Position numbers and translations under genes: made by a program | DNA from: Vibrio vulnificus CMCP6 | GTDB taxonomy: Bacteria > Pseudomonadota > Gammaproteobacteria > Enterobacterales > Vibrionaceae | Reading direction: 5' to 3' | Length of the DNA stretch: 32,000 bases | NCBI RefSeq assembly: GCF_000039765.1 | Contig: NC_004459.3 | Span: forward strand, 2,601,127-2,633,126 | Part shown: positions 7,533 to 27,809 of the stretch, piece by piece | Layout: every line of letters begins with the position of its first letter | How positions within the stretch are numbered: position 1 is the first letter of the stretch | Notes under the pieces: generated by a model | What the model was told of the DNA's origin: nothing | The model's database searches: none | The model's input: only the letters and a program-made list of their open reading frames with translations

Positions 7533-9311
7533 CTAGATTCTGCCTTGAAGTGGAATAATTGTCACGCTTTCTCCCGTTTTTACGCTATCCACCGCGGGAG
7601 AAATTTCAATCAAGCAGTTGGCTTCACTCATCGAACGCAAAATGCCAGAGCCTTGTTTCCCAGTCGTGCGAACGGTTAGGCGGCCAGTTTCATCCAATTC
7701 ATAGACACCACGGCTAAACTCCGTGCGGCCTTGGCGAGAACGCAAATCTTCTTTGGCAATCGCACTGACTTTCAATGGCTTCCAGCCTAGCTCGCCTTGC
7801 ATTTTACGTACCGCAGGCTCAACAAAGTTGATGAATGATACCATCACGGCAACAGGGTTGCCCGGCAGGCCAAAAAACGGTTTTTCATTGATCTGACCAA
7901 ATGCTAATGGGCGCCCAGGACGCATATTGATGCGCCAGAAATCAATTTGTCCGAGCTTGTCGAGAGCCAGTTTGATGTAGTCGGCATCGCCAACGGACAC
8001 GCCACCCGAAGTAATGACCACATCCGCTTGCTGCGCTGCGCTTTCTAGTGCGTCGATCATCGATTGCTCGTTGTCTTCTAGAATGCCGAAGTCCAAGATG
8101 TCACAGCCGAGCTTCTCAAGCATGCCCATAATGGTAAAACGGTTTGAATCGTAGATAGAGTTCGCTTTCTGTTCTGTACCAGGCGCTTGAACTTCGTCGC
8201 CGGTGGAGAAGACTGCCACTTTCAACTTACGTAATACATTGGCTTGTGCAAAACCAAGAGAAGCCATCATGCCCATTTCAGGTGAGGCGAGGCGAGTCCC
8301 TGCGGTAAACACGCTACTGCCGATGGTTAAGTCTTCACCCGCTTGGCGTACGTTTTGTCCGGCTTTGATGTTGGCACCATTGAAAGTGACCTTGTCACCG
8401 TCTTGATGCGCTTGCTCACGCATGACCACCGTATCTCCGTTGATGGGCGTTGGCGCACCGGTCATGATTTTGACCGCTTGCCCCAATTCTAACAGGTGTT
8501 CGTAGTGGTAACCGGCCAGCACTTCAGCCACGATCTGGTAACTTTCTCGCTGTAAGTCATCACTTCGAATGGCGTATCCATCCATCGCTGAGTTGGTGTA
8601 TTGCGGTACATTCACCGGAGAAATCACGTCGTGAGCCAGCACGCGCCCATAGGTGTGTTGTATCGGGCACGATTCAATATCACCCACAGTAGAGACGAGG
8701 GAGAGAATTTTCTCTTGCCCTTGGGCAACAGAAAGAAACGCCGGAGAAAGCGTATCGCAACATGCGGCAGGTGCATTTTGCGTGGCCACTTGCTGATGTT
8801 GGTGAACATAATCGAGGACAAATTGGCAAATCGCATCCAGATCATTGATGTTGAGTTGGGGCAGTGCGCTTTCTAACGGGCCACTGTCTGAAGCGATGGC
8901 AATAATGTTCTCATCATTAGGGTACAACCACGGTTTTCCGACTTCTTCACGATGCAATTCGATTTTGGGAAACGCAATGTTCTTGCAGCCTTCGACCAAA
9001 ATGACGTCAATCGTTTGCTGATCAAAGCGGCTAAGCAGGTAATCAAATTCCGATTCAGCCTCAGGGGTTTCTGTCATCAAGGCAAAACGATTTCTCGAAG
9101 CAATCAGCATTTGTGAGGCACCCGCTTTGCGTAAGCGGTAGCTGTCTTTACCTGGTTTATCGACGTCAAAATCATGATGAGCGTGTTTCAGTAACCCAAT
9201 TCGCAGACCTGCTGCGGTCAATTTTGGCAACAAGGCTTCCAGTAGGGTGGTTTTTCCTGTGCCTGAATAAGCAGCAAAGCCAAGTAAAGGCAAAGTGATG
9301 GTGTTTCTCAT
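7533..9311 (-). CDS. moeA: fused MobB (MGD-biosynthesis adaptor, P-loop) / MoeA (molybdopterin metal-insertase) protein
   Basis: 592 aa. Residues 1-170 align with E. coli MobB ([36 protein letters not shown]). After a short linker ([16 protein letters not shown]), the rest is MoeA-like ([26 protein letters not shown]). The ATG overlaps the mobA stop (ATGA). Confidence 0.9.
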
Positions 9312-9895
9312 GATTCTAGTTGTCCAAATTGGGTGAGTTCTTCAGGCGTGTTGAGGTTGACGAAACAGTCTGGAGAATCACTAAAATCCACATACTGTGT
9401 GTGACACTCTTTGTAGAGTAAGATGATTTTACGGTCACCGCGTTCTAAAAACGCCGTCAGTTTAGGCAAAACACGTTTGTGATACAGGGTAAAAACAGGT
9501 TGCTGATGATTGCCATCATGGGCAACCAAAATGTCGGTTTCATCCGTCACAGCACGACAAAAGCGCTCCACCAAGTCTTCATTGATACGGGGGCAGTCAC
9601 AAGGAACAAAACCAACCCAATCGGTACTCGCGTGCAGTAATCCGGCATGAATGCCGCCCATAGGACCAGGGAAATTTTGAAAATGATCGCCAAACACGGG
9701 ACCATATTGTTGGTAATCATCCTGATTGCGGTTGGCATTGATCAGAATGTTTGAAGTTTGCGGCGTTAGCCGGTCAATGACGTACTCAATCAACGGCTTA
9801 TTATTTAAGGCGATTAAGCCTTTGTCTTTACCGCCCATTCGGCTAGCTTGGCCGCCAGCTAAAATAACCCAACTAGTGAGTGTTGGTTGTAGCAT
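9308..9895 (-). CDS. mobA: molybdenum cofactor guanylyltransferase MobA
   Basis: [27 protein letters not shown] matches the MobA N-terminal LAGGxxxRMGG-DKG motif. I chose ATG 9895 by alignment with the E. coli MobA N-terminus; the ORF track start is 9931. The gene overlaps the tupC 3' end by 23 nt. Confidence 0.85.
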
Positions 9896-10592
9896 AGGTA
9901 TTCTCTTGGGATAACTCTTTTGTAATGACATACAAGAGTGGCGACTCTACCAGAGTATTGTTTTTGATCCACCACTGTTTTTTACACAAATCGGTAAGCG
10001 CGTTGGTTTGATGGCTCGTGACCACAATGCTGGAACCTCTCGCTAATAAATCTTGCGCTAACACCACTAAACGCTCGATCGACTCTTGATCAACCGACGC
10101 GCTGGGTTCATCCATCAGCAAGATTGAAGGTTTTAGGATCCAAGCCCTGGCCATCGCAACCCGTTGACGCTCACCACCAGACAGCACAGACACATGCTCA
10201 TCGGCTAAGGTTTCTAAGCCTACCATACGCAGCGCGTGAATCACTTCGGCTCGTTTCTCCTTTGTGCTGCCACCATCATATTTGATGCCGTAAAGGACAT
10301 TTTCATAGACGGAACCATCAAAAAGATAAGGGGACTGATGAAGATAAACAACATCACGACGGCCCAATGAAGGAAACCAGTGGCGAAGCCAGCCATTATT
10401 TTGCGCACACACTTTACCGCTCGTCGGATGCACCAAACCAGCCAAGATCTTCAACAAGGTCGTTTTGCCTACACCATTGTCCCCCTTGAGGTAAATGGCA
10501 TCGTTAGGGCCGATTTGAAGTTGAGGAATGTGAAACAGCACTCGCTCTTTAAAGCGCATGGAAAGATCTCGAGCGGTAATTTTAATCGTCAT
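9873..10592 (-). CDS. tupC: ABC transporter ATP-binding protein (TupC-like)
   Basis: Walker [10 protein letters not shown], signature [12 protein letters not shown], Walker B LLMDEP. The true start is ATG 10592 ([10 protein letters not shown]...), 8 nt after the tupB stop and preceded by GGAAG. The 366-aa track ORF carries a spurious N-terminal extension that overlaps tupB. Confidence 0.75.
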
Positions 10593-10600
10593 ATCACTTC

Positions 10601-11299
10601 CTAAGTTCGCAAATAGCCTTTGCCACGCATACTCGACAGCAAAAAATTCAACACGAGTGCCAAGGTGAGCAGCACAATACCAAGCGCAACACCTTGAGCA
10701 AAGGCGCCCTTGTGGCTCTCCATTGAAATCGCGGTGGGGATGTTTCGCGTCAAACCCATAATGTTCCCACCAACCATCATTGAACAACCCACTTCGGTCA
10801 CAATTCGAGAAAAACCGGTAATGGTGGCCGCCATAAGAGGAAAACGGGTTTCCCAAATCATCGTCCCACTTAATCTTGGCAGAGACACACCAAGGGTTAA
10901 TGCGGTTTCTAACGCGCGGCGATCGCTCGATTGCAACGCGCCATACATCATCGAAACCAACACAGGAAAACAAATCAGCATTTGCCCGAGGATCATCGCT
11001 TTTTGGGTGAACAGCATCTGCCAGTCACCGAGCGGACCTGATCGCGAGAGGAACATGTAAAGCAGCAAACCAATCACCACCGTGGGTACCGATTGCAACG
11101 TGTTCACAAATGAAACCAACAGCCACTTGCCGCGAAAATTGGTGTAGGCGAGGAGAAAAGACAAAAAAGTCGCAGGCAACAGCACCAACAATATGGCAGT
11201 AAGAGAAACGCTAAAGGAGACCGCAACGATCTCCCATAGTTCTTTGTCTAAGCTAAACAGTAAGGCAAAAGCCTCTTGTGTTGTTTGCCAAAGGCTCAT
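10601..11299 (-). CDS. tupB: ABC transporter permease (TupB-like)
   Basis: 232 aa with about 5-6 TM segments, lying between the binding-protein and ATPase genes with 6-nt and 8-nt gaps. Confidence 0.75.
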   Translation of the reverse strand: MSLWQTTQEAFALLFSLDKELWEIVAVSFSVSLTAILLVLLPATFLSFLLAYTNFRGKWLLVSFVNTLQSVPTVVIGLLLYMFLSRSGPLGDWQMLFTQKAMILGQMLICFPVLVSMMYGALQSSDRRALETALTLGVSLPRLSGTMIWETRFPLMAATITGFSRIVTEVGCSMMVGGNIMGLTRNIPTAISMESHKGAFAQGVALGIVLLTLALVLNFLLSSMRGKGYLRT

Positions 11300-11305
11300 T
11301 GATGA

Positions 11306-12124
11306 CTACTTCTGATCTGCATTTGCCACAAACAGTTGCTTGCCATTTAAGCGGAAGCTGTTGATCAGCTCTTGACCACGAGGATTGACCAACCAGTCAC
11401 TGAATGCTTTGGCGCCCTGATAATTGATGCTCGGGTAGCGCTCTGGATTGACCAAAATCACTTGGTACGGGTTGAAGAGTTTTTGATCACCTTCGAACAG
11501 TACCGCAAGATCCAACTTGTTGTTGTAAGCCAGCCAAGTGCCACGGTCTGTTAACGTGTAACCTTGCATTTCTGACGCCATGTTCAGCGTTGGCCCCATA
11601 CCTTGACCCACTGAGCGATAGCCGCCGAAGTTGGGTTCCATCTTGGTTTGAGCCCAAATACCCAGTTCTTTCTTGTGCGTACCCGAATCATCGCCACGTG
11701 AGATAAAGGTGACATTGTTGTCCGCGATGGCTTTAAACACCTCAAGTACGCTGTTGTCTTGAGCAACTTTCGCTGGATCTGCTTTTGGTCCCACGACGAT
11801 AAAGTCGTTGTACATTAGCTTGCGAGGTAACACTCCGTAGCCTTTTTCGACAAAGGTCGCTTCGGCTTTCGGAGCATGCGTCATCACCAAATCCACATCG
11901 CCATTTTCACCCATTTTCAGTGATTTACCTGTCCCTGCGGCCAGCACATCCACTTTATAACCGGTGTCTTTTTCGAATTCAGGCAGTAGGTAATCAAGCA
12001 GGCCAGAGTGATAAGTACTGGTCGTGGTTGCCAAACGCACACGGTGAACATCATCGGCAGAGAAAGAGGAGAAACTCACCAGCGTAATCGACGTTGCCGC
12101 CAAAGTAAGAGCTACTTTGTTCAT
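11306..12124 (-). CDS. tupA: periplasmic tungstate/molybdate-binding protein, TupA type
   Basis: 272 aa with a signal peptide (…SFSSFSA). The N-terminal RLATTTSTYHSGLLDYLLPEFEK contains the TTTS anion-binding motif characteristic of TupA-family proteins, and AAGTGKSLKMGENGDVD is TupA-like. Confidence 0.8.
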   Translation of the reverse strand: MNKVALTLAATSITLVSFSSFSADDVHRVRLATTTSTYHSGLLDYLLPEFEKDTGYKVDVLAAGTGKSLKMGENGDVDLVMTHAPKAEATFVEKGYGVLPRKLMYNDFIVVGPKADPAKVAQDNSVLEVFKAIADNNVTFISRGDDSGTHKKELGIWAQTKMEPNFGGYRSVGQGMGPTLNMASEMQGYTLTDRGTWLAYNNKLDLAVLFEGDQKLFNPYQVILVNPERYPSINYQGAKAFSDWLVNPRGQELINSFRLNGKQLFVANADQK

Positions 12125-12233: not shown

Positions 12234-12249
12234 TGGATATCAGTTTGCA
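12234..12249 (+). promoter_or_regulatory. weak sigma-54-like -24/-12 element facing the regulator gene
   Basis: TGGATA-TCAGT-TTGCA. The GG and GC are correctly spaced but there are three mismatches in the -24 hexamer. It lies face-to-face with the stronger minus-strand element. Confidence 0.3.
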
Positions 12250-12266
12250 ATTGCATATAGTCCTAT

Positions 12267-12282
12267 TGCAAACAAGATGCCA
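12267..12282 (-). promoter_or_regulatory. sigma-54 (-24/-12) promoter of the tupABC-mobA-mobB::moeA operon
   Basis: The minus strand reads TGGCAT-CTTGT-TTGCA against the consensus TGGCAC-N5-TTGCW (one mismatch). It lies about 140 nt upstream of the tupA ATG. Confidence 0.65.
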
Positions 12283-12351
12283 ACAAAACACCAGCACTAA
12301 ATTGAGAAAATAAGCTTTATATCATGCAGTTAAACAGTCAATAGTTTGATG

Positions 12352-12368
12352 TGAGACAAAATGTCGCA
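12352..12368. promoter_or_regulatory. 17-bp dyad, candidate enhancer (UAS) for the sigma-54 activator
   Basis: TGAGACAAAATGTCGCA. The centre is about 80 bp upstream of the tupA -24 element. It is near-identical to the sites at 25270-25286 and 25331-25347, and it lies 20 nt upstream of the regulator's ATG 12388. Confidence 0.55.
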
Positions 12369-12387
12369 CATTTTATAAGGAGATTTA

Positions 12388-13893
12388 ATGATTCATTGGT
12401 ACACTATGTCCTATACGTCATTCTGTCTCGAGGAAAGTATGTCTATTCAATTGGATCCCAACTCCGTATCTCAATACCAAGCGTTTTCCGTGTTAGTCGT
12501 CGATGATGAAGTCGGCATGCAGGCCATTTTGAAAAAAGCGCTGGGTAAATGGTTTTCAAAAGTGGATGCGGTAGGCAGTATCGAACAGGCTGAAAAGCTC
12601 AGAGTGACCAACCATTACGACCTAATTGTTCTCGACATCAATTTGCCCGGGCGTTCGGGCATCGAATGGGAAGAAGCCTTCAATGATCCCGAGCGAAAAG
12701 CCGATGTCATCTTTATGACCGGATATGCCGATCTCGAAACCGCCATTACAGCGCTGAAACTGGGCGCGACGGATTTTATTCTTAAGCCGTTTAATCTCGA
12801 TCAGATGCTGCAAGCGGTAAAACGCTGTATGGATCGTCGCCTTAATGCACGCATGCAATATGCGCTCAAACGAGATTATCAACGCAATCATATTTCTGAA
12901 ATGGTTGGGAACTCCGACAAAACCCGCCAGCTAAAGCACATGGTTACACAGTTTGCCCCGTCAAAAGCGTGTGTGCTGATTGAAGGGGAGTCTGGCACTG
13001 GTAAAGAACTGGTGGCTCGTGGTGTTCATCTGGCCAGCGGTAGAACCGGTCCTTTTGTGCCATTAAACTGTGGCGCGATTGCTCCTGAACTGTTGGAAAG
13101 TGAGCTGTTTGGTCATACTTCCGGCGCGTTTACGGGGGCGAAAAAAGCACGTGAAGGGCTTTTCCGCGTTGCCATCGGCGGCACATTATTCCTCGATGAG
13201 ATTGGTGAGATGCCACTGGCGATGCAATCGTCTTTGTTGCGAGTGCTAGAGCAACGCAGTATTCGCCCTGTTGGTAGTGAAAAAGAAATTCCAGTCGATG
13301 TACGCGTGGTCGCGGCAACCAATCGCGATTTACAGCAAGAAGTCGAAAAAGGGCGCTTTCGTAAAGATCTCTATTACCGACTCAACGTGCTGAAAATTGA
13401 AGTACCGCCGCTGCGAGAAAGAAAGGCCGATTTGCAAGAGTTGGTGCCATTCTTCACTAAACAGCTCTCAAGCGAGCTTGCTATGTCTGCCCCGCAATGG
13501 GCGCATGAAGACATCGAAGCCATGCATGATTACAGCTGGCCAGGTAACGTACGTGAGCTACGCAATCTGATTGAACGTTGTATTCTCCTTGGCAAACCAC
13601 CAGCGCATTACTGGCGTGAACTGAATGGATCTATGAACCTGCCAAACGTTTCAATCACCGTTTCTCACAGTGCTGAAGTGCCAACTTTTAAAGAAGGGAA
13701 GAAAGAATTCACCGGTGTTGGCTACCCCAATGATTGGACATTAAAAGAGGTGGAAAAGGCCCATATCCAACAAGTGGTGCACTATTACGATGGCAATAAA
13801 TCGGCGGCATCGCGTGATCTTGGCGTGGCACGCAAAACGTTGGAGCGCAAATACAAAGAGTGGGAAACCGAGGAAGCGGATTATGCAGAGTGA
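12388..13893 (+). CDS. NtrC-family sigma-54-dependent response regulator (REC-AAA+-Fis HTH)
   Basis: Receiver domain (VLVVDDE ... [13 protein letters not shown]). AAA+ domain with Walker A GESGTGKE and the sigma-54 contact loop GAFTGA. C-terminal HTH ([19 protein letters not shown]). ATG 12388 has AAGGAG 6 nt upstream; the alternative start ATG 12439 also has GAGGAAAG. Confidence 0.9.
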
Positions 13894-15916
13894 TCAAACA
13901 CTTTGGTCAACTTGGCGCTATCGCTTTAAAAGTATGGTGCGCTATCGGTTGCTGTTTCTAACCTCAGCGCCGATTTTCCTCACCTTGATTGCACTGATTG
14001 GCATCTCTGTCTATTGGTCGATCCATTACACTTGGAGCAGTGCACTGATTGATGTTTCTGAACGCCTTGGGGTTGCCAATAACAGCATTACGCTATTGCA
14101 ACAGAAGCAGGCTAATTACGTTAAAGCCTTTGCTGAAAGCTATCAGTTTCGCACTCGTATCAATCAGCCAATGGATCAAGACGATCTTCAGCAATGGGTA
14201 CATAAACAGAAAAAGCAATATCAGCTCGATTTTCTCGCTTTTCATCGTGTCGACACCATAGAGCAAAAATTTCGTTTTCTCGATTTAACCAAACGAGAAT
14301 CCTTTTTTGATGTGTTGAGCGAAACGGAGTTACAACGTCTTGATCCAGACTTGGCCAAGCGCGCCGAAGTGCCGATTTTAAAAACGGGCAAAATTGAAAC
14401 GCGTGGCCTCATCAGCCGCACTGTGATTCCAGTGTTTAACCAAAGTAATGATCTGATTGGTTTTCTAGATGGCGGGTTACTACTTAACAACAGCACCGTG
14501 CTCGTCGACCAAATCCGCGACTTGATTTACATCGGAGATGAGGATTCTCTCAGGCCGATCGGTACCGTGACGCTGTTTATGGAAGATCTCCGCGTCAGCA
14601 CCAATGTACCACTAGACAGCGAAGATCAGATTGGCCGTGCGATCGGTACTCGGGTTTCTGGTGAAGTGCATAAATCGGTATTGCAGCAAGGAGAGCGTTG
14701 GGTTAATCGCGCCTTTGTGTATGACGCTTGGTATATCACCGCCTATCAACCCATTCGCGACCAATACAACAACACCATCGGCATGCTCTACACCGGCTAT
14801 TTGATGTGGCCATTTGTTAAAGCGTATCTTACCAACATAGTGGAAATCAGCGTTATTACCTTAACCTTGCTGGTGGTCTCTGGGCTTTTGGTTTATAGAG
14901 GCTCGCGGGATCTTTTCCGTCCTATTGAACGCATTCATAAAGTGGTGAAATTGGTGCAACTGGGCAAAGACAAGCGGATTGGTGCGTTAGGGCTAGATGA
15001 AAACCACGAGCTGGCGCAATTGGCCAAACAGTTTGACAACATGCTCGATCTGCTCAAAACGCGTGAAGAGCAAATCAAACAAGCGGCCAATGAACTGGAG
15101 CAAAAAGTGTTGGATCGCACAGCCAGCCTCAATGAAAAAACCGAGCAGCTTGAGCACCACATTCGATTACTCAATCAAACTCGCGACAAACTGGTCGTCA
15201 ATGAAAAGCTGGCGGCCTTGGGCGAGTTAACCGCGGGTATCGCCCATGAGATTAACAACCCAACCGCCGTGATACTGGGTAACGTCGAGTTGATTCGTTT
15301 TGAGCTCGGTGAAGATGCCGCGCGCGTAGAGGAAGAGATAGAAACGGTGATGGCGCAGATCGACCGAATTCGTAACATCACGCGAAGTTTGCTGCAATAC
15401 AGCCGACAGGGCGGGGTGCAAGATGAGATCATTTGGCAGCATGTCAATCCTATCATCGAAGAGAGCATTACCTTGGTCAAAACTGGCTCTAAAAAACGCA
15501 CCATCGAATTCGTTACTGAGCTCAATGCGCATACGTCCGTTGAAGTGAATCGCCATCAACTGTTACAGATTTTGGTTAACTTACAAATGAACGCCATCCA
15601 TGCAATGAACGGTGAAGGGCGATTGAGCATCACCAGTGAAGATTGGTTGGAAGAAGGGGAAAGCGTGGGTGCGGTCATCCACATTGAAGATCAAGGTTGC
15701 GGCATTAAGCCCGAAAAACTGAGCCGAATATTTGACCCGTTTTACACCACCAAGCGTGATGGAACCGGCCTTGGTCTTTCTGTTAGCCAGAGTTTGCTTA
15801 GCCAATCAGGCGGGGAGATCAAAGTGCGTTCACAACTGGGGATTGGCAGCACGTTTAGCGTCTATCTCCCAAGAAAGAACGAAGCCAAACTGCGTGATAC
15901 CTTGCTGATTCAATAA
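13883..15916 (+). CDS. sensor histidine kinase with a roughly 265-aa periplasmic (Cache/PDC-like) domain, HAMP, HisKA and HATPase
   Basis: Start ATG 13883 (MQSDQTLW...) overlaps the regulator stop by 11 nt; the track start 13790 is rejected. Two TM segments bracket the periplasmic domain (...RAFVYDAWYITAYQPIRDQYNNTIGMLYTGY). H-box AGIAHEINNP, N-box NLQMNAIHAM, G-boxes DQGCGI and GTGLGLS. Confidence 0.9.
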   Translation: MQSDQTLWSTWRYRFKSMVRYRLLFLTSAPIFLTLIALIGISVYWSIHYTWSSALIDVSERLGVANNSITLLQQKQANYVKAFAESYQFRTRINQPMDQDDLQQWVHKQKKQYQLDFLAFHRVDTIEQKFRFLDLTKRESFFDVLSETELQRLDPDLAKRAEVPILKTGKIETRGLISRTVIPVFNQSNDLIGFLDGGLLLNNSTVLVDQIRDLIYIGDEDSLRPIGTVTLFMEDLRVSTNVPLDSEDQIGRAIGTRVSGEVHKSVLQQGERWVNRAFVYDAWYITAYQPIRDQYNNTIGMLYTGYLMWPFVKAYLTNIVEISVITLTLLVVSGLLVYRGSRDLFRPIERIHKVVKLVQLGKDKRIGALGLDENHELAQLAKQFDNMLDLLKTREEQIKQAANELEQKVLDRTASLNEKTEQLEHHIRLLNQTRDKLVVNEKLAALGELTAGIAHEINNPTAVILGNVELIRFELGEDAARVEEEIETVMAQIDRIRNITRSLLQYSRQGGVQDEIIWQHVNPIIEESITLVKTGSKKRTIEFVTELNAHTSVEVNRHQLLQILVNLQMNAIHAMNGEGRLSITSEDWLEEGESVGAVIHIEDQGCGIKPEKLSRIFDPFYTTKRDGTGLGLSVSQSLLSQSGGEIKVRSQLGIGSTFSVYLPRKNEAKLRDTLLIQ

Positions 15917-16001: not shown

Positions 16002-16883
16002 TTATTGACCGCTGAATGCAATTCTCGGTGGTTTGATGCCGTGTTTCTTAAACTCTTTCATTACACGCAAAGTAATGTCGGATTCAAACAGTTTTTCATA
16101 AGCAGTATCCACCACGTAGGCTTTGCAGGTTAACTGGATAGCCAAATAGTTGTCCGTGATCGTCTGTTTCACCAGTACCACCACCGGTTTCGGCAGGTGG
16201 ATGTAACGGCTAGACGAAGCCGCTTCCTGAATCAACTCACGCGCGAGCACAATATCTTCATCCATACCGACATAGAAGGGGATCACCACCTGCATGTCGA
16301 GTGCGCCATAGTTTCCACTGACCGTCACTTCATTGAGAAACTTGTTGTTCGGAATGGTAATGATGTCATCGGTCAGTGTTCTCATTCGCACAGAACGAAG
16401 GCCAATCGCGATGATGTCACCATAGTTGCCTTCGAACGTGACGCGGTCACCCACCTGAAACGGGCGATCAATCATCACCGTCAATCCGGCAATAAAAGAC
16501 GCGGCCAAGTCTTTCAACGCAAAACCAACCGACACCGCCAACGTACCACCAATTAAGGCTAAGATATGGTCGTTGATGCGAAAGCTCATCATAAACACCA
16601 CAAGGCCAGCGGTTAAGTAGATGAAGAACTGTAAGAACGATTGGGTTTTCTGCAACAGCATTCGATACTGCGCAAACTGGCCGCCAATGCTCTCTACCAT
16701 TGAATTCATGAACTTCAACAGTAGCCAAGTAATGGCGATGATGATGACAGAGAAGAACACACCGCTCCAGCGGATCAAGCTGGCAAATTGCTGAATGTTT
16801 TCCATATTGGCGATTTCTTCCGTCGCGAAGGCCGGTGCCGAGATCAAAGCCGCGGCGAATAGCGCGTAGAGTTTCTTATTCAT
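16002..16883 (-). CDS. MscS-family mechanosensitive channel protein (small, with N-terminal signal-like sequence)
   Basis: 293 aa. MNKKLYALFAAALISAPAFA is signal-like. Three TM segments are followed by the MscS pore/beta-domain signature (GGTLAVSVGFALKDLAASFIAGLTVMIDRPFQVGDRV...IPNNKF). The ATG lies 1 nt after the stop of the upstream gene. Confidence 0.85.
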   Translation of the reverse strand: MNKKLYALFAAALISAPAFATEEIANMENIQQFASLIRWSGVFFSVIIIAITWLLLKFMNSMVESIGGQFAQYRMLLQKTQSFLQFFIYLTAGLVVFMMSFRINDHILALIGGTLAVSVGFALKDLAASFIAGLTVMIDRPFQVGDRVTFEGNYGDIIAIGLRSVRMRTLTDDIITIPNNKFLNEVTVSGNYGALDMQVVIPFYVGMDEDIVLARELIQEAASSSRYIHLPKPVVVLVKQTITDNYLAIQLTCKAYVVDTAYEKLFESDITLRVMKEFKKHGIKPPRIAFSGQ

Positions 16884-16884
16884 A

Positions 16885-19254
16885 TTACTTCACCAGCAAA
16901 TGTTGACGATCGAGAACGTTGGTAATGTAGCGGAACCAATGGTCCGAGACGCGAGCTTTATCCTCATTCCAAGCAATAAAGCCACGGCTTTCAAAGAAAC
17001 GAAGTGTACCAATCACTTCAGCGATGCTGAGCTGAGTACACTCGGAGAGCTCTTCGGGAGAGGCCACTTCAAGCTGTACAATTGAACGTAACACCGCCAG
17101 CATCGGTTTAGGCATCTGCTCCAACTCTTTGGATTCCGGCGCATGGAACAAGCGCACCACGACACTATCAGACTCTTTATTGCGTCTTAACGACAAGCGG
17201 AAGAATCGCAGCGCCACTGTTGGGTTACCATCGGAGTAGTGCCACAAAATTCGGTAGAAGCCTTGTTTGGCTCGTTCTTCCTCAGAAGTCTCTTCTTGAT
17301 CCCACTGCTTAGGCACCACAAGGCCATCAAAGCTCAGCGGATTTTCAATATCCTGATTTACGCGGCTATCGAGTAAGGCAGAGATCTGTTTTTCATTCCA
17401 ACGAGGCAAAAAGGAGACCCAATCAAACAGCAGTCGCTCGCCACGAGCGCGATCGACAAAACGCCAGCTTGCTTTCTCAATCGCCATCACAACGCGGTGA
17501 TTTTGTTTAGATCGGCGCAGCAGGTTCGTCAGCTTCATCAGTCCGGCTAAACCACCAACCATGGGCTTCACCAAACGTTGTGCGTTATCAACTGCGATGA
17601 GATACGGCGTTTCACTTTTACGCAAGAACGCTAAAATTTGCACTTCTGTCGACTCTTCTGCCAACCCTAATCCTGTCGCCAACTGTTTCAACAGCTCTGG
17701 GTAACCATCGTAAGGGCAGTTAAGGTAAAGCGGCGTGGCGTTTTTCACTTTGCCAAGTATTTTCTTCAATACCGATGTGGTACCCACACCACGCTCACCT
17801 GACAACACACAAATCGCGGGGCTATCGGTCAACAAATAGCGAGAGAGGTTTTGAATTTCGTCACTGGCGTAGTCAATCCACTCGCTGTCTTGCTGCGGAG
17901 GCAACACATATTGAAATGCCGCATCACCACGAATGCGCACCAGTGAGTCGTTGCCGTCTCGGTTGCTGGTTTGCTTAGCCACTTCGATACGGAAGAGGTA
18001 AGCCAGTGCCTGACTGAACATGGTGTAGTTTGAGAGAGTCGCAATAATGCGATGTTTAAAGTGATGGCTAATCAGCCATACCGCCGAGATTGCGGTTGCT
18101 GGAATATTGAGAATAAAGCTATCTTGGCGTTTGATTGCCCACTGTACCCAGACTGGACGCTCCGTGATGCGATCAACCACTTCAAACACTTTTTTACGCC
18201 ACAGACGCAAAACGGATACAGTGACCAGAACGAACCAGAAGTACAGTGCGCTGTAGATCCAATAGTAAATGGTCCCTTTACCAAGAGTACGAACGGAGAT
18301 TTGTAAAATCACGCCAGCAACAATCGCACTCCACACATAACGTCGAATCGTGGCAAGGCGAAGCGCCACCACGTCTTTACTGGAACTGCGGCTATTGCGA
18401 TAAGCAAATTCAAGAATAAAGCTAATGGCGATGGAACCGCCTAAGATCCACCAAGTGAAGATCTCTAGATACACCAGATGTTGCAAACTCGGCAACTCGG
18501 CCAAAATACGCAAAGAAAGCGTAATCGCCACTAACCAAGCAATAGCGCGGTTTGCGCGGCTGAAGTACCAAATCAAACGCACCCAAAGAGTCGGCGCGTT
18601 GTTGTTATCAAGCTGGCTTTCACGAAACAACGTGATGATGCGTTTGCTGTTCGCCATCCACCACACCAACAGCAAGTACACGGCAAACACTTTCAACCCG
18701 GTCCAAATAACAGGCACTGGGGAAATAAAGGTATTTTTAATCAGAGCGCGAAAGCTTCTTATCTGAAAATGGACCAAATACTCGAGATTCAACTTCGTCA
18801 GTATCAGCTCTTGGCGAAACTGCGTCACGCCATAAGGGCCAAACCCCGTCAACTGCTCTTTGGTCGCGCTATCTGTCAATTGCAACAGCTTGGCCTTGCT
18901 ACTGCCTAAGCTATTGAGGGTGAGGTATTGATTCTCTACCGTTTGCCAATGCTCAGCTGTCGGCGTTTGGCGATATTGCTCGAGCAAACGTTTGAAGGCG
19001 TCACCTTCAGACTTTTGCATGGCGATAACAGCGGTGAGCATTTGATTCACCTTCACCTGATCTTTGGCGCTCATAAAGAGCGGGTCAGGCAATCGGGCTA
19101 AATCAGACTCAACGCTGAGTGCTTGGGCGTTGATCTGAGGTGGTGTCTGTGCAGCATATTGCCATTGGGCAAAGGATGCAGGCGCAAACAGCAGGGTAAA
19201 ACAAACGAATAGACGTAATATTTTTGGCATAAGTTGATCGTAATCTTTAGACAT
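16885..19254 (-). CDS. 789-aa membrane protein of unknown function: signal peptide, periplasmic helical region, multi-TM block, cytoplasmic degenerate P-loop NTPase-like domain, C-terminal winged-helix-like tail
   Basis: Long uninterrupted ORF. N-terminus ...LFVCFTLLFAPASFAQ, with about 6 hydrophobic segments between residues 180-400. The Walker-A-like GERGVGTTS lacks the Lys, and the Walker-B-like YLIAVDNAQ has DN instead of DE. The start is either 19254 or ATG 19230; neither has a strong RBS. Confidence 0.7.
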   Translation of the reverse strand: MSKDYDQLMPKILRLFVCFTLLFAPASFAQWQYAAQTPPQINAQALSVESDLARLPDPLFMSAKDQVKVNQMLTAVIAMQKSEGDAFKRLLEQYRQTPTAEHWQTVENQYLTLNSLGSSKAKLLQLTDSATKEQLTGFGPYGVTQFRQELILTKLNLEYLVHFQIRSFRALIKNTFISPVPVIWTGLKVFAVYLLLVWWMANSKRIITLFRESQLDNNNAPTLWVRLIWYFSRANRAIAWLVAITLSLRILAELPSLQHLVYLEIFTWWILGGSIAISFILEFAYRNSRSSSKDVVALRLATIRRYVWSAIVAGVILQISVRTLGKGTIYYWIYSALYFWFVLVTVSVLRLWRKKVFEVVDRITERPVWVQWAIKRQDSFILNIPATAISAVWLISHHFKHRIIATLSNYTMFSQALAYLFRIEVAKQTSNRDGNDSLVRIRGDAAFQYVLPPQQDSEWIDYASDEIQNLSRYLLTDSPAICVLSGERGVGTTSVLKKILGKVKNATPLYLNCPYDGYPELLKQLATGLGLAEESTEVQILAFLRKSETPYLIAVDNAQRLVKPMVGGLAGLMKLTNLLRRSKQNHRVVMAIEKASWRFVDRARGERLLFDWVSFLPRWNEKQISALLDSRVNQDIENPLSFDGLVVPKQWDQEETSEEERAKQGFYRILWHYSDGNPTVALRFFRLSLRRNKESDSVVVRLFHAPESKELEQMPKPMLAVLRSIVQLEVASPEELSECTQLSIAEVIGTLRFFESRGFIAWNEDKARVSDHWFRYITNVLDRQHLLVK

Positions 19255-19453
19255 AACGAAGAGATTGTAGTCTCAAAAACTGTTCATAATTCAGACAAAT
19301 AGAAATTTGCTGTGAAACTTTATCCATATTCACGTTTCAAATGTCAATGTTTTGTGATTTCAGTCATAAAAATCAAAGCTTGCACTCTGGGGCGTGAACA
19401 AGTAACGTTGCGCAGTTTTTTCTATTTGTTACTGACTCACTAAGGTAAAAGCT

Positions 19454-21046
19454 TTGATTTCTACAGCGAATATCACTCAACAATTTGGCGCTAAGCCACT
19501 GTTTGAAAACATCTCAGTTAAATTTGGCGAAGGCAATCGCTATGGTCTAATTGGGGCAAATGGTTGTGGTAAATCAACCTTTATGAAAATCCTCAGTGGT
19601 GAGCTTGAACCAACGAGTGGTAACGTCAGCTATGACCCAAATGAACGTGTTGCAAAACTGAATCAGGATCAGTTTGCTTACGAAGAGTTCACGGTTATCG
19701 ACACCGTTATAATGGGTCACAAAGAACTGTGGAAAGTGAAGCAAGAGCGTGATCGTATTTACTCGCTGCCAGAAATGAGCGAAGAGGACGGCATGCGTGT
19801 TGCGGATCTTGAAGTCGAGTTCGCGGAAATGGATGGCTACATGGCAGAAGCGAAAGCGGGTGAGCTTCTTCTTGCTGTAGGTATTCCAATGGAACAGCAT
19901 TACGGCCTAATGAGCAGCGTGGCGCCAGGTTGGAAACTGCGTGTGCTTCTAGCTCAGATTCTATTCGCCGACCCAGACATCATGCTGCTTGACGAACCAA
20001 CCAACAACTTGGATATGGATACAATCCGTTGGTTGGAAGACACGCTAAACGCGCGTAACTGCACCATGATCATCATCTCGCACGACCGTCACTTCCTAAA
20101 CTCTGTGTGTACCCACATGGCGGACTTGGATTACGGTGAGCTGCGTGTTTACCCAGGTAACTACGACGAGTACATGACCGCGGCGTCACAAGCTCGTGAG
20201 CGTCTACTCAGCGATAATGCGAAGAAGAAAGCGCAGATTGCTGAGCTACAAACCTTCGTAGCGCGTTTCTCTGCCAACGCATCAAAAGCAAAACAAGCGA
20301 CCTCTCGTGCGAAGCAAATCGACAAGATCAAACTGGATGAAGTCAAAGCATCTAGCCGTCAAAACCCATTCATTCGTTTCGAACAGTCAAAAGAGCTGTT
20401 CCGTAACGCTTTGATTGTTGAAAACCTAAGCCAAGGTTTTGAAGATGACTTGTTCTCAGACTTCAACGCGATTTTTGAAGTGGGTGAGCGTGTTGCGATC
20501 ATCGGTGAGAACGGTGTGGGTAAAACAACTCTTCTAAACACGCTGGCGGGTGTACTCGAGCCACGCACTGGTGAATTCAAATGGTCTGAGAACGCCAACA
20601 TCGGCTACTACGCGCAAGACCACGCACATGAGTTTGCAGAAGACCTAAACCTAATGGAGTGGATGGGCCAATGGCGTCAAGAGGGCGACGACGAGCAAGT
20701 GGTTCGTGGTTTCCTAGGGCGTATGCTGTTTGGTCAAGACGACATCAAGAAGTCGGTAAAAGTCCTATCTGGTGGTGAGCAAGGTCGTATGCTGCTTGGT
20801 AAGCTTATGATGCACAAACCAAACATGCTGCTCATGGATGAACCAACCAACCACATGGACATGGAATCGATCGAATCGTTAAACAACGCGCTTGAGCAAT
20901 ACAAAGGCACATTGTTCTTCGTCTCGCACGATCGCGTATTCGTAGACTCACTGGCAACTCGCATCATTGAAATCCGTGATGGCAAAATCACCGACTTCAA
21001 AGGCACTTACTCTGAGTACCTAAAATCACGCGGTGTAGAAAGCTAA
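19454..21046 (+). CDS. ybiT: ABC-F family ATPase YbiT
   Basis: 530 aa, collinear with E. coli YbiT as I recall it (…[38 protein letters not shown]…). It has two ABC cassettes and no TM domain. A TTG start at 19454 is required: there is an in-frame TAA 12 nt upstream and no ATG that preserves the conserved N-terminus. RBS TAAGGT. Confidence 0.9.
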
Positions 21047-21076
21047 TTTCGCGTTGCGTGCTTAAAAAGATCAAAC

Positions 21077-21106
21077 AAAGAGCCTCACTGAGGCTCTTTT
21101 GCTTTT
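21077..21106. terminator. bidirectional rho-independent terminator
   Basis: AAAGAGCCTC-ACT-GAGGCTCTTT followed by TGCTTTTT, between convergent ybiT (+) and the MCP gene (-). Confidence 0.7.
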
Positions 21107-21155
21107 TCCACTACCTATCGTCACTCAGTCGATGACGGCAAGTAGGTTAGGGCGC

Positions 21156-23018
21156 TCAATACTTAAATTGGGCAACGATCTTTTCCAGCTTGTGGCTAAC
21201 ATCCGACACTTGTTCGCTGCATCGTACAGAGCCAGAGACGATCTCGTAGGTATCCCCCGCAAGCTGCGCAATTTGCGTAATATTGCGGTCAATTTCTGCT
21301 GATACCATTGATTGCTCTTCTGACGCGGTCGCAATCTGCGTGTTCATATCAAACATCTCGGTGATTTGAGTGCTGATGCCTTCAATCGCTTCGATCACAT
21401 GGCGCGTATCCACATTCGTCGTCCGAGCTTGATCGACACTCTCTGCCATTTTGTTGACTGTTTGAGTGATGCCTTTCGTCAGTGCTTGTACGGTGGATTC
21501 AATTTGCAAGGTGGAATCATTGGTTAGGCGAGAGAGCTGACGAACTTCATCAGCGACCACAGCAAACCCTCGGCCACTTTCTCCAGCGCGCGCCGCTTCT
21601 ATGGCGGCATTTAATGCCAACAGGTTGGTTTGCTCTGCAATGCCTTGAATGGCAGAGACAACGGCATTGATTTCGCGGCTTTGTGCTTCAAGTGCTTGGA
21701 TCTGCGCTTGCGACTCTTCAATACTGATGGCTAACGTATCAATTCGCTTACCTGTCGCGTGGGTGAGTTGCAGTGCTTTATCGGCTTCGGTATTCACTCG
21801 TTGCGCATTTTGCGCAGCCGATTCAATATTGGCGGTGATCTCATTGGTCGTCATCACCAGTTCATTCACCGCTGTTGCAACAGACTCGGACTCTAACTTC
21901 TGCTGCTGCGCGTTTTGCATACTTTTCTGCGCTGCTTGCTCTGAGCTGCATGAATTCTCGCCAAGAACGCTCATCACGGACGCCAGCTGTTTGATGTTGT
22001 CATGTAGGTGGCTTATAAAGAGGTCAAATGAACGCGATAACTGCGCAAGCTCATCACTGCCTTTTGCATTCATTCGTACCGTCAAATCTCCGCTACCATT
22101 TGCGATGTCGTCCATCAAGAGGTTAATGGCTTTGATTCTCGAAAGAATACTACGGCCAATGACGTAGAGCAGTGACGACAACAGCGCAACGATCGCCACA
22201 CCCATCCACTGTAAGTAGCTTCGAATATCCGCTGCAGTTTGCTCAACGCTTTGCTTAATGGTGGTTTGCAGATCGGTAATCGCCTGTTCGGTTTTGTGCA
22301 CATTGCTACGCAACGCGCCTCTTAGACCTTCGTTTGCAGTTAAGCCAAGCGTTTCGATCGCGCTGACGTATCGAGATAAGGTGTTGGAATAATCGGTAAA
22401 AGCGGGAGACAAATCGGTTTCAAACTTGGCAAACTGGCGAAGCCCTTCGAGCAGCGCAACCTTGTATTCTTGCGTTGGTTCGGTGACAAAAGTGAAGTCG
22501 TGGTCAAGCAACTGCAAAAACTGCGCGGTAAGCTCTCCATCATTAGCACTGAGTACATTGGTTTTGAGCACGCTGCGTGCAGCAAATAGCTCACTTTGCA
22601 ACGCGTCAATGCTTGCTAGCTGAGCGGCCAATTGATGAAACTGAGTTTGATACTGAGATAGAGTGGTTACAATTTGCTGACGTTGATCGTCAATAGCAAT
22701 CGACTCACTGGCAAGAACGTCTGATAAGTGGTCAATGCGCTGTTGCAGTTGAGAATAGGTATTATCGAAACTCGTCAGGTATTTTTCGCTGCGACGAGCC
22801 AAATAATCTTTCTCGTGTCGGCGAAGCATCAACAGATCAATGGAACTGCTTAAGTTTTCTGTTGAGGCGTGCTCCAAAGAGGACAAATGCTTTGCGCTGT
22901 TGTTCTCATAAATCGCGTAGGCGGCAACGCCTAACAGCAAAGTCACATTGATGAGCAGCAGTTTGGCTCGGATAGAGAATGAAAAGAAAAAACGTTTTTG
23001 AACAGGTGATCCGGACAT
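21156..23018 (-). CDS. methyl-accepting chemotaxis protein
   Basis: 620 aa. N-terminal TM, a roughly 240-aa helical periplasmic region, a second TM ([18 protein letters not shown]), HAMP, and the signalling hairpin [41 protein letters not shown]. Confidence 0.9.
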
Positions 23019-24056: not shown

Positions 24057-24072
24057 AGCAATTACCGTTCCA
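24057..24072 (-). promoter_or_regulatory. sigma-54 (-24/-12) promoter upstream of fdhD
   Basis: The minus strand reads TGGAAC-GGTAA-TTGCT (one mismatch to TGGCAC-N5-TTGCW). It lies about 85 nt upstream of the fdhD GTG. Confidence 0.6.
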
Positions 24073-24140: not shown

Positions 24141-24156
24141 TGGCTTAGAATTTGCT
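24141..24156 (+). promoter_or_regulatory. sigma-54 (-24/-12) promoter upstream of the DUF3305/DUF3306-like genes
   Basis: TGGCTT-AGAAT-TTGCT, with correct GG/GC spacing. It lies about 100 nt upstream of ATG 24256. Confidence 0.6.
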
Positions 24157-24714: not shown

Positions 24715-25291
24715 TTTTTTCTCTCGCTGGTCCTCTCGTAAGTTAGCGGGAGATAGGCAAAAGCAGCCAAAACAAAGCGATGAAGATATCGCAGCGCACT
24801 CGTCGCTCACCGATGAGCAGAAAAACGCTGTCGAAGAAGACCGCGCATTACTCTCGAACCAGACAAGTGGCAAAAAAGAGGGTGCTGATGAGCAGACGGA
24901 GCAAGAACCTACTATTTCAGCGCTGTTGGCCAGTGAAGCGACGCAAGAAGTAAAAAAAGCGGCACTGCGTAAGCTTTTCCACAGTGAAGAGTTTAACGTG
25001 GTTGATAGGCTCAATGATTACGATCACGACTATAAGTCTTCTATTGGTGCTCTCGCACCCAATGTGGCGCAGACGTTAAGAGAATGGATGAAGCCAGTAG
25101 AGAAAGCGTTGACTGAGGCCGAGCCAGAAAGTGCACCTTGCACATTGGATGGTTCAGTAGCCGTTGATAACGATGAAAGTATTGAGGCGAACAGTGACAC
25201 GCTAACGCAATCTGAGACTCAAGCCCTGACTTTATCTCAATCCGATCTTCCTGCAAATGAAACGCTAGATGAGACAAAATATCCCACATAA
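24704..25291 (+). CDS. FDH-cluster protein of unknown function (DUF3306-like, from memory)
   Basis: GTG start overlapping the previous gene by 11 nt. The N-terminal FFSRWSSRKL motif is followed by an acidic, Gln/Glu-rich low-complexity region. 195 aa. Confidence 0.65.
   Translation: MATDFFSRWSSRKLAGDRQKQPKQSDEDIAAHSSLTDEQKNAVEEDRALLSNQTSGKKEGADEQTEQEPTISALLASEATQEVKKAALRKLFHSEEFNVVDRLNDYDHDYKSSIGALAPNVAQTLREWMKPVEKALTEAEPESAPCTLDGSVAVDNDESIEANSDTLTQSETQALTLSQSDLPANETLDETKYPT
25270..25286. promoter_or_regulatory. 17-bp dyad (distal candidate UAS), embedded in the last codons of the DUF3306-like gene
   Basis: TGAGACAAAATATCCCA. With flanks it matches the tup-region site TGAGACAAAATGTCGCACAT at 18 of 20 positions. 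It lies 61 bp centre-to-centre from the proximal site. Confidence 0.5.
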
Positions 25292-25321
25292 AAAATAGGT
25301 ACATTTTGACGCGGGATGGGA

Positions 25322-25356
25322 AAATTCAATTGGGACAAAATGTCCCAATTGAATTT
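25322..25356. promoter_or_regulatory. perfect 16+16 bp palindrome (proximal candidate UAS / RNA hairpin)
   Basis: AAATTCAATTGGGACA-aaa-TGTCCCAATTGAATTT. The core TGGGACAAAATGTCCCA (25331-25347) matches the shared dyad. The centre is about 90 bp upstream of the -24 element at 25428. Confidence 0.6.
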
Positions 25357-25427: not shown

Positions 25428-25443
25428 TGGTATAGCACTTGCT
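25428..25443 (+). promoter_or_regulatory. sigma-54 (-24/-12) promoter of the Fe-S / chaperone / FDH structural genes
   Basis: TGGTAT-AGCAC-TTGCT, with correct GG/GC spacing. It lies about 80 nt upstream of ATG 25521. Confidence 0.65.
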
Positions 25444-25520
25444 AATGCTCCACAACAATAACTGAATTATCAGTATGACCTGCCAATCCTTCGCAGTGTT
25501 GGCCAGTGTGGAACAGAGCA

Positions 25521-27188: not shown

Positions 27189-27809
27189 ATGGATATCCAA
27201 CCAGAATCGTCATTAAGAGCCGATATTTATTTGCTGCTATCGACGCTATTTCGCCAAGCTCCATCTCCAGCATTGCTTGAGCTATTGACGTTGTTAGACA
27301 CCGTAGCGGATGGCAGTGAAATGCAAAATGCGTGGTTGCAATTGAAAGCGGCCTCGAACCGTTATTCCGACGCAGAGCTTGAAGAAGAGTACCAACAACT
27401 TTTTATCGGAATTGGTCGTGGGGAAGTGGTGCCATTTGCCTCTTGGCACCTCACGGGTTCTTTGATGGAAAAACCACTGGCCGAGATCCGTACCGATCTT
27501 GCTCGCCTTGGCTTTGAACGCCAGGAGCATGTCAAAGAGCCGGAAGATCATATTTCAGCCTTATGTGAAGTGATGGCGGCGCTGATGGAACAGACCGATG
27601 CGCAGCAACAGGCGTTTTTCAACCGCCACCTTGCGACTTGGTATGTTTCCCTCACCAAGCAAATCGATCAAGCCGAACACGCCGGATTTTACTTAGCGGT
27701 TAGCCAATTGCTCGGCGCATTTTTCAATCTGGAAAAAGTGCGTTTAACGAAAATCACGCCGGACAACAAAACCAAATTAAAAATTGAGATTAAAAACTTG
27801 GCGGATTAG
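27189..27809 (+). CDS. TorD/DmsD-family redox-enzyme maturation chaperone
   Basis: 206 aa with the family hallmark EPEDHIS (EPxDH) and the YQQLF motif. It lies directly upstream of Tat-dependent FdhA. Confidence 0.85.
   Translation: MDIQPESSLRADIYLLLSTLFRQAPSPALLELLTLLDTVADGSEMQNAWLQLKAASNRYSDAELEEEYQQLFIGIGRGEVVPFASWHLTGSLMEKPLAEIRTDLARLGFERQEHVKEPEDHISALCEVMAALMEQTDAQQQAFFNRHLATWYVSLTKQIDQAEHAGFYLAVSQLLGAFFNLEKVRLTKITPDNKTKLKIEIKNLAD

Follow-up and report, generated by a model that had tools for sequence, protein, structure and literature searches.

Between the tungstate uptake (tup) operon of Vibrio vulnificus CMCP6 and the divergent gene for an NtrC-type response regulator lies a 17-bp dyad, at positions 12352–12368 of a 32,000-nt stretch of contig NC_004459.3 (positions 2,601,127–2,633,126 of the forward strand; the whole stretch is referred to as the window). 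This dyad, site 1, is very probably a promoter-proximal upstream activating sequence for the adjacent NtrC-family regulator. It belongs to a set of five boxes, two in front of the tup operon and three (A, A′ and B) upstream of a periplasmic formate dehydrogenase (fdh) operon. We infer from sequence comparison that this regulator is the binder and that its binding is activating. An enhancer had already been proposed here in the initial annotation, and that interpretation is supported by phylogenetic footprinting, the distance to the promoter, a site resembling those of integration host factor (IHF), the regulator with a GAFTGA motif next door and published RpoN dependence. The arrangement has canonical −24/−12 elements downstream, at least two sites ∼70–200 bp upstream of them, dyads of the 7-3-7 type, and an activator with both GAFTGA and a DNA-binding domain. 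The boxes are very probably NtrC-type enhancer sites of a familiar kind, and the new part is the predicted regulon of a conserved, uncharacterised activator.

Direct reading of the sequence at site 1 gives TGAGACAAAATGTCGCA (TGAGACA-AAA-TGTCGCA), which forms the core of a 23-bp dyad, ATGTGaGACA-AAA-TGTCgCACAT, at 12349–12371. The palindrome between tupA and the regulator gene had been reported by the initial annotation, together with an exact second copy of its 11-mer GACAAAATGTC at 25334–25344 and a match of 18/20 to the site 1 20-mer at 25270–25289, where the sequence is TGAGACAAAATATCCCACAT. All three were found as described. Its view that such matches are unlikely to arise by chance also holds, as TGNGACAAAATGTCNCA with up to two mismatches occurs only three times in the whole window (12352–12368, 25270–25286, and 25331–25347) against 0.13 expected, and none of 100 dinucleotide shuffles gave three or more. 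The 17-bp palindrome is therefore real and not a chance pattern.

Although the three sites noted at first all stand, they are not the full count, since site 2 and site A′ (12397–12413 and 25297–25313) raise the number of boxes to five. Site 2, with the Vibrio consensus TTGGTACACTCTGTCCCA, follows site 1 at a distance of 45 bp and ends 25 nt ahead of the probable regulator start codon. It was overlooked earlier because ATG 12388 had been taken as the regulator start, which put site 2 inside the open reading frame. The regulator orthologues (482–484 aa) align from ATG 12439, which is preceded by a GAGGA Shine-Dalgarno sequence, and conservation does not extend to the 17 additional codons that begin at ATG 12388. 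The true start is thus probably 12439, so that site 1 would lie ∼70 nt upstream of the regulator gene. Of the claim that the dyad precedes ATG 12388 by 20 nt, the distance (19 nt) can be kept, but that codon is probably not the start.

On the fdh side, site A (Vibrio form TGgGACAAAATATaCCA) occupies the last codons of the DUF3306 open reading frame, site A′ (consensus AGGTACATTTTGACTAA, also given as AGGTACATTTTGACtaa) follows it, and site B (Vibrio form TGgGACAnnnTGTCTCA) is promoter-proximal. In Vibrio the spacings are 27 bp from A to A′ and 34 bp from A′ to B. Sites A and A′ are imperfect palindromes. Site A is read in the frame ...GAT GAG ACA AAA TAT CCC ACA TAA in the window and in the frame ...GTG AGA CAA AAT ATA CCA CAC... 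in V. alginolyticus, and is therefore conserved as DNA and not as a peptide. The differing frames are seen when positions 25270–25286 of the window are set beside 17856–17872 of comparison locus L001; the rest of the DUF3306 C-terminus is hypervariable and acidic.

Conservation was examined in 63 Vibrio loci with 10-kb flanks, obtained from a scan for the kinase in species-representative genomes, to which three V. alginolyticus loci were added by a separate fetch. Site 1 (Vibrio form TGgGACAAAATGTCgCA) is present at the same position in all of the ∼65 Vibrio loci examined, and in every tupA-regulator intergenic region sites 1 and 2 stand out against otherwise divergent sequence. Their start-to-start spacing is exactly 45 bp in 61/65 loci, while the intervening DNA is variable. 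The three fdh boxes are likewise conserved upstream of the Fe-S protein gene. Information inside the boxes ranges from 1.65 to 1.84 bits/position, compared with 0.35–1.0 in the flanks. For site 1 it is 1.65 in the 17-mer vs 0.44 in the flanks (55 distinct Vibrio sequences), and for site 2 it is 1.84 vs 0.35, the highest conservation in the whole tupA-regulator intergenic region. When a weight matrix made from all boxes was run over 1.43 Mb of Vibrio locus sequence, 206/224 matches scoring ≥14 fell inside the tup and fdh box regions. The remaining 18 are mostly in coding sequence such as moeA and were taken as coding-driven or chance. Some loci have an extra degenerate box just upstream of site 1, e.g., TGTGGACAAAAAGGGGC or TGGGATAAAATGGCTCA (L033, L041, L043, L049, L061, and L065, and also L040 and L042).

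The system extends well beyond Vibrio. When 1.8 billion representative proteins were searched without a profile, the sensor region of the kinase returned full-length relatives of 35–53% identity, among them proteins of Aliivibrio fischeri, Aeromonas schubertii, Ferrimonas, and Modicisalibacter, and the sensor alignment retrieved 80 metagenomic loci. The gene order, tupA divergent from regulator-kinase and often followed by fdhD, DUF3305/6, the Fe-S protein, TorD and FdhA, is kept down to ∼50% regulator identity. We defined a distant set as the loci whose regulator is <70% identical to that of the window (49–66%). The core G[AT]CA-N3-TG[AT]C occurs in 39/42 distinct tupA-regulator intergenic regions of this set against 0.6 expected, usually in one or two copies 70–190 bp upstream of a minus-strand −24/−12 element. 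It is also found in 6/8 distant regions upstream of the Fe-S gene and in 2/3 distant fdhD-DUF3305 regions. The phylogenetic footprinting that the initial annotation had proposed thus shows the dyad conserved upstream of the tup and fdh orthologues, in the ∼65 Vibrio loci as well as in these distant regions, and protein and motif have been kept together across a broad range of relatives. In the most distant G+C-rich relatives (L137, L141, L146, L149, L151, and L152) the half-site changes from GACA to GTCA (TGGGTCAAAATGACCCA). No clean co-variation between the recognition helix and GACA/GTCA could be extracted from the distant relatives, as one and the same helix is found with either variant, and a single intergenic region can contain both.

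The boxes keep a defined relation to sigma-54 promoters that are conserved in all Vibrio loci. The centre of site 1 (12360) lies 79 bp from the GG of the tupA −24 element, in agreement with the ∼80 bp given by the initial annotation. The corresponding distance for the proximal tup box is 67–69 or 77–80 bp in 51/61 distinct regions, with a few at 91, 109–121 or other values. For the proximal fdh box, site B, it is 79 bp in 30/36 distinct regions and 90 bp in the window, i.e., 11 bp extra. The distal boxes are a further 45 bp out for tup and a further 34 and 61 bp out for fdh. As these distances differ in steps of ∼11 bp, the boxes seem to stay on one face of the helix. Sites resembling the IHF consensus WATCAANNNNTTR with at most one mismatch are found between box and promoter in 39/54 distinct Vibrio tup intervals (8.9 expected) and in 31/35 distinct Vibrio fdh intervals (7.1 expected). 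The tup interval of the window has one, whereas no IHF-like site with ≤1 mismatch was found on the fdh side of the window. The IHF-like sites of Vibrio occupy fixed positions ahead of both promoters, on the fdh side ∼31 bp upstream of the −24 element. A bending site of this sort is frequent at such enhancers without being obligatory, and an order of enhancer, bend and sigma-54 promoter is the textbook one.

The regulator next to site 1 contains the Pfam domains Response_reg, Sigma54_activat, and HTH_8, with GAFTGA present in the translation. Its Fis-type helix-turn-helix (HTH) is essentially invariant in Vibrio, and the HTH core GNKSxAARxLG(V/I)(A/S)RKTL(E/D)RK is kept in relatives that are ∼50% identical overall. 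All scores against the NCBIfam equivalog models are below the cut-offs (bits/cut-off: AtoC 380/714, NtrC 370/559, ZraR 326/760, and FhlA 243/830). By these scores the protein is best described as an unnamed NtrC-family member that is not an orthologue of the named regulators.

Published data from two other Vibrio species support the sigma-54 dependence. In V. cholerae, chromatin immunoprecipitation sequencing (ChIP-seq) of RpoN together with RNA-seq identified promoters for VC1516-10, VC1519, VC1518-17, and VC1523-27, and the promoter of VC1523-27, the tup operon orthologue, was both RpoN-bound and RpoN-dependent (PMC3439928). The other three correspond to the fdh operon (VC1516-10), fdhD (VC1519) and DUF3305-DUF3306 (VC1518-17), and the published V. 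cholerae −24/−12 sequences are very similar to those at the V. furnissii locus L063. In an rpoN mutant of V. parahaemolyticus, the fdh operon orthologues VP1510-VP1515 were down 9- to 27-fold (PMC9817140). A ChIP-seq peak of the quorum-sensing regulator AphA has been reported at VC1522 and the VC1522-VC1523 intergenic region of V. cholerae (PMC6855506). This AphA peak hints at a link between cell density and the regulon.

From these data a mechanism can be proposed. The Cache kinase would phosphorylate the regulator, and phosphorylated regulator dimers would bind sites 1 and 2 and assemble into an AAA+ oligomer. An IHF-assisted bend might then bring the oligomer to sigma-54 RNA polymerase at the tupA −24/−12 element, ∼100 bp away, where it would spend ATP to open the promoter and switch on the genes for tungstate uptake and molybdopterin cofactor synthesis. 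The same regulator is predicted to bind A, A′, and B upstream of the sigma-54 promoter of the fdh operon. With a regulator shared by both operons, the enzyme and its metal and cofactor supply would be induced together. This activator probably also works at the fdhD and DUF3305 promoters. With site 2 ending 25 nt short of the start codon and site 1 a further 45 bp upstream, binding at the two sites should also affect the promoter of the regulator-kinase operon, and autoregulation via site 1 or site 2 is plausible from this layout.

Several points weigh against an enhancer used by this regulator. The genes tupA and regulator are always adjacent, so conservation cannot tell linkage to the regulator from linkage to tupA. 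The five boxes are the top five matches to the weight matrix in the window (site B first, site 2 fourth), and four of them outscore every one of 50 shuffles, but the matrix was trained on the same site family. Both these rankings and the 206/224 count in the Vibrio loci are therefore partly circular, though the confinement to two short regions is still striking. Phasing statistics for the box-promoter distances reach significance without favouring a 10.5-bp period, and relatedness inflates them; they serve here as description only. Sites 2, A, and A′ depart from the consensus at positions that do not vary either, a feature not accounted for by simple dimer binding; these invariant deviations and the fixed spacings point to a defined higher-order complex or a second factor. 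No dyad could be found near the fdhD and DUF3305 sigma-54 promoters in the window or in most Vibrio, where the nearest boxes are ∼1.1–1.3 kb away. These promoters would need either the regulator acting from >1 kb or another activator. In two distant relatives, L127 (13988) and L128 (14041), the fdhD and DUF3305 promoters have a perfect dyad between them, and the two promoters are probably further members of the regulon. On the experimental side, purified RpoN alone gave no shift of the VP1510 promoter in an electrophoretic mobility shift assay, a result that is uninformative on the activator (PMC9817140). Finally, VC1522 and VP1502, the orthologues of the regulator, appear in the literature only as list entries with no function assigned to them. 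Literature searches on tungstate, sigma-54 and formate dehydrogenase two-component systems, VC1522, Vibrio tupA, and the motif string turned up no description of the regulator's sites.

The dyads could instead be operators of a factor encoded elsewhere, such as a molybdate/tungstate-responsive repressor of the ModE/TunR type or an anaerobic regulator (FNR, NarP or ArcA), while the regulator binds something else. With tupA and the regulator adjacent, conservation alone cannot assign the binder, metal-responsive repressors are generally common on metal-uptake operons, and the AphA peak in the orthologous V. cholerae intergenic region belongs to an unrelated protein. Yet the boxes lie ∼100–175 bp upstream of the inferred starts and are fixed relative to the −24/−12 elements, with none of the promoter overlap that is usual for repressor operators. 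The sigma-54 promoters, moreover, require an enhancer-binding protein, and the regulator is the only one in the gene cluster. The 7-3-7 dyad fits the sites of Fis-type HTH proteins and not the FNR, NarL/NarP or ModE consensus, and the intergenic regions show no further conserved dyad as an alternative site for the regulator. Operators of another factor are therefore improbable. A chance likeness or a dispersed repeat (a REP-like element or the remnant of a mobile element) without regulatory role would draw on the short A/T-rich palindromes that are common in Vibrio intergenic DNA. This is effectively refuted by the excess of matches in the window (three against 0.13 expected), by position and spacing being kept across genera, and by the confinement of 206/224 matrix matches to the box regions.

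The repeats might also be alike because of a shared structure, as RNA or DNA hairpins acting as terminator, attenuator or processing site. Site B gives this idea its substance, as it forms the tip of a 35-nt perfect palindrome that is homologous to the DUF3305-DUF3306 operon terminator of other Vibrio. As RNA the hairpin has a predicted stability of −28.1 kcal/mol (z = −7.9). Across 16 Vibrio species the seven inner pairs, i.e., the box, hardly vary, while the six outer pairs co-vary; 95.7% of cells are paired compared with 36–47% in slid controls, and none of 500 shuffles gave as much covariation. In 32/37 Vibrio loci the stem is followed by a T-run, and the V. alginolyticus copy was called terminator-like. 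In most Vibrio the predicted enhancer box thus sits in the stem of the DUF3305-DUF3306 intrinsic terminator. The window copy has a longer stem than in other Vibrio, followed by CTCGTCATC with no T-run, and no terminator was called; it is homologous to the terminator but not classed as one. A terminator, however, can do without a fixed stem sequence, but in site B the inner 7+7 nt hardly change and have the same letters as the tup box. At sites 1 and 2 the pairing stops at the edge of the dyad while the sequence itself is conserved (most outer positions are 15–67% paired, one site 1 position 84%). Furthermore, A and A′ are imperfect palindromes, site 1 is upstream of the tupA start site, and Rfam gave no match, neither a molybdenum cofactor (Moco) riboswitch nor any other family, in the tupA leader or the fdh upstream region beyond sub-threshold noise. 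Hairpin structure in place of protein binding is very unlikely as the source of the likeness. A terminator doubling as an enhancer box would place two codes in one sequence.

The closest parallel is NtrC (NRI) at glnAp2. NtrC consists of REC, AAA+, and a Fis-type HTH, and recognises a 17-bp 7-3-7 dyad with TG...CA ends. At least two such sites lie ∼100–150 bp upstream of the glnAp2 −24/−12 element, and they overlap the promoter region of its own operon, which leads to autoregulation. The system described here shares the domain set, the 7-3-7 dyad, the multiple upstream sites and the position near the regulator's own operon. It differs in the half-site (TGgGACA compared with TGCACCA for NtrC), in the family score already given (370 bits against a cut-off of 559), and in the kinase, a membrane-bound Cache sensor here and the cytoplasmic NtrB there. 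The regulon consists of tungstate uptake and formate dehydrogenase here, and of nitrogen assimilation for NtrC. ZraSR (zraP/zraSR) and AtoSC resemble it in being sigma-54 two-component systems divergent from their target, with inverted repeats for the activator in the intergenic region between the two. The best NCBIfam matches include AtoC and ZraR for the regulator and AtoS and ZraS for the kinase, but all scores are well below the equivalog cut-offs, and sensor domain and targets differ. A functional analogy exists to Escherichia coli FhlA, a sigma-54 activator that co-induces formate dehydrogenase and accessory genes from upstream sites. FhlA is a one-component GAF protein that senses formate in the cytoplasm, unlike the REC-domain regulator described here (243 bits against 830), and acts on FdhF/hydrogenase 3, whereas the enzyme encoded in the window is a periplasmic, Tat-exported respiratory enzyme of the FDH3 type. 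For DNA recognition itself, Rhodobacter RegA, also a regulator with a Fis-type HTH, has ChIP-seq sites such as CGGACAAAATGTCGC and GTGACAATTTGTCCC, and the RegA/PrrA box sites share the core G(A/T)CA-N3-TG(A/T)C with the boxes found here (PMC5359404). These sites show that dyads of this kind can be recognised by a response regulator with a Fis-type HTH. The likeness is restricted to DNA recognition, as RegA has no AAA+ domain, acts at sigma-70 promoters and is a global redox regulator. Comparison of the HTH with the PDB gave only weak matches (PrrA, Fis, NtrC4, and ZraR).

As to the inducing signal, we favour, with low confidence, formate over tungstate; our guess is that the Cache domain senses formate or another small carboxylate like it. 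The carboxylate sensors DcuS and CitA have domains related to the Cache_3 type. The preference for formate follows from this kinship and from the fact that the regulon would supply all that a formate dehydrogenase needs. A search of PDB sequences with the sensor domain gave no informative relative.

Taken further, and only tentatively, the data might describe a regulon that is widespread in Vibrionales and, judged by kinase orthologues, also present in Aeromonadales, Alteromonadales, and Oceanospirillales. In this possible but somewhat doubtful combination, a periplasmic Cache kinase would sense formate or a metal oxyanion, and one sigma-54 activator would co-induce the tungsten/molybdenum formate dehydrogenase, its Tat chaperone, FdhD, tungstate uptake, and cofactor synthesis. 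Site B would work both as RNA, by stopping DUF3305-DUF3306 transcription, and as DNA, by activating the next promoter, and the invariant imperfect boxes with their 45-, 27-, and 34-bp spacings would encode an ordered assembly of the oligomer.

Through this analysis the orphan two-component system of the VC1522-21/VP1502 family, known from V. cholerae, V. parahaemolyticus and V. vulnificus-like strains as well as many marine Gammaproteobacteria, gains a probable function and a DNA motif open to experimental test. The analysis also names a predicted activator for sigma-54 promoters of V. cholerae that had been mapped by experiment but had no enhancer-binding protein assigned to them. For enteric and marine bacteria, the oxidation of formate is an important source of electrons for respiration, and a shared switch makes the signal, formate or tungstate, testable. 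The start codons of both regulatory genes in the window are corrected in Table 1, which collects the coordinates.

Table 1. Boxes, promoters and genes in the window (strand as given; a dot is used for the dyads).
Feature	Position	Strand	Details
Site 1, promoter-proximal enhancer dyad of tup operon (very probable)	12352–12368	.	Centre ∼−104 from inferred tupA transcription start
Site 2, TGGTACA-CTA-TGTCCTA, TGGTACACTATGTCCTA	12397–12413	.	Footprint, 45-bp spacing, weight matrix
fdh site A, TGAGACA-AAA-TATCCCA	25270–25286	.	Last codons of DUF3306 open reading frame
fdh site A′, AGGTACA-TTT-TGACGCG	25297–25313	.	27 bp after site A; 1.81 bits/position
fdh site B, perfect dyad TGGGACA-AAA-TGTCCCA	25331–25347	.	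Promoter-proximal; top weight-matrix match in window
35-nt perfect palindrome with site B at tip	25322–25356	+	Homologous to DUF3305-DUF3306 operon terminator of other Vibrio
Sigma-54 −24/−12 promoter of tupA operon, TGGCATCTTGTTTGCA	12267–12282	-	Conserved in all Vibrio loci
IHF-like site TATCATGCAGTTA	12320–12332	+	One mismatch to WATCAANNNNTTR; between site 1 and tupA promoter
Sigma-54 −24/−12 promoter of fdh operon, TGGTATAGCACTTGCT	25428–25443	+	Conserved in all Vibrio loci
Sigma-54 promoter of fdhD, TGGAACGGTAATTGC	24058–24072	-	Divergent from DUF3305 promoter
Sigma-54 promoter of DUF3305-DUF3306, TGGCTTAGAATTTGC	24141–24155	+	Divergent from fdhD promoter
tup operon, tupA-tupB-tupC-mobA-mobB/moeA	7533–12124	-	NCBIfam scores, synteny
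tupA-like	11306–12124	-	
tupB	10601–11299	-	
tupC	∼9873–10595	-	
mobA	9308–9931	-	
mobB-moeA fusion	7533–9311	-	
NtrC-type response regulator	12439–13893	+	REC + AAA+ (GAFTGA) + Fis-type HTH; orthologue of VC1522/VP1502; probable start
Sensor histidine kinase	13883–15916	+	Periplasmic single Cache (sCache_3_3); domain search, 677-aa homologue; probable start
Fe-S protein (fdh operon)	25506–27179	+	
TorD-like chaperone (fdh operon)	27189–27809	+	
FdhA (fdh operon)	28085–30940	+	
FDH3 beta (fdh operon)	30952–31560	+	

Within the tup operon, tupC encodes an ABC ATPase, and TupA (247 bits, cut-off 400) and TupB (181 bits, cut-off 320) are both below the NCBIfam equivalog cut-offs. We therefore use the label "TupA-like", which refers to the best-matching family over a full-length alignment and leaves the specificity for tungsten vs molybdenum aside. 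The kinase probably starts at 13883 and not at the start of the longest open reading frame (13790), and a 677-aa V. vulnificus protein is 100% identical to it over the 421-aa sensor query. The genes fdhD (minus strand) and DUF3305-DUF3306 follow ∼10 kb beyond the kinase, and then comes the fdh operon, whose alpha subunit FdhA has 951 aa. Compared with V. alginolyticus, the window has extra genes at 16002–23018 for an MscS-type channel, a 789-aa AAA-domain protein and a methyl-accepting chemotaxis protein, and the tup and fdh enhancers are therefore 13 kb apart instead of 8 kb. The nearest genome locus in the comparison set is that of V. floridensis. In the Harveyi clade, the leader downstream of the DUF3305 sigma-54 promoter contains a motif-like sequence, e.g., GTACAAAATGTCC, which is absent from the window (seen in L006, L007, L008, L047, L001, L013, and L015).

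Candidate promoters for the regulator gene itself were also considered. Site 2 was rejected as a sigma-54 promoter, as the spacing puts TC/CC where GC is needed, and a sigma-70 consensus scan gave one weak match (12234–12261), no better than in shuffles. On the plus strand, the sigma-54-like sequence TGGATATCAGTTTGCA (12234–12249) faces the regulator, but its GG is TAG in the closest relative, L004, and it is probably due to chance. It arises from an inverted repeat, GTTTGCAAT/ATTGCAAAC (12243–12251/12265–12273), that flanks the tupA −12 element and is found only in the window and L004.

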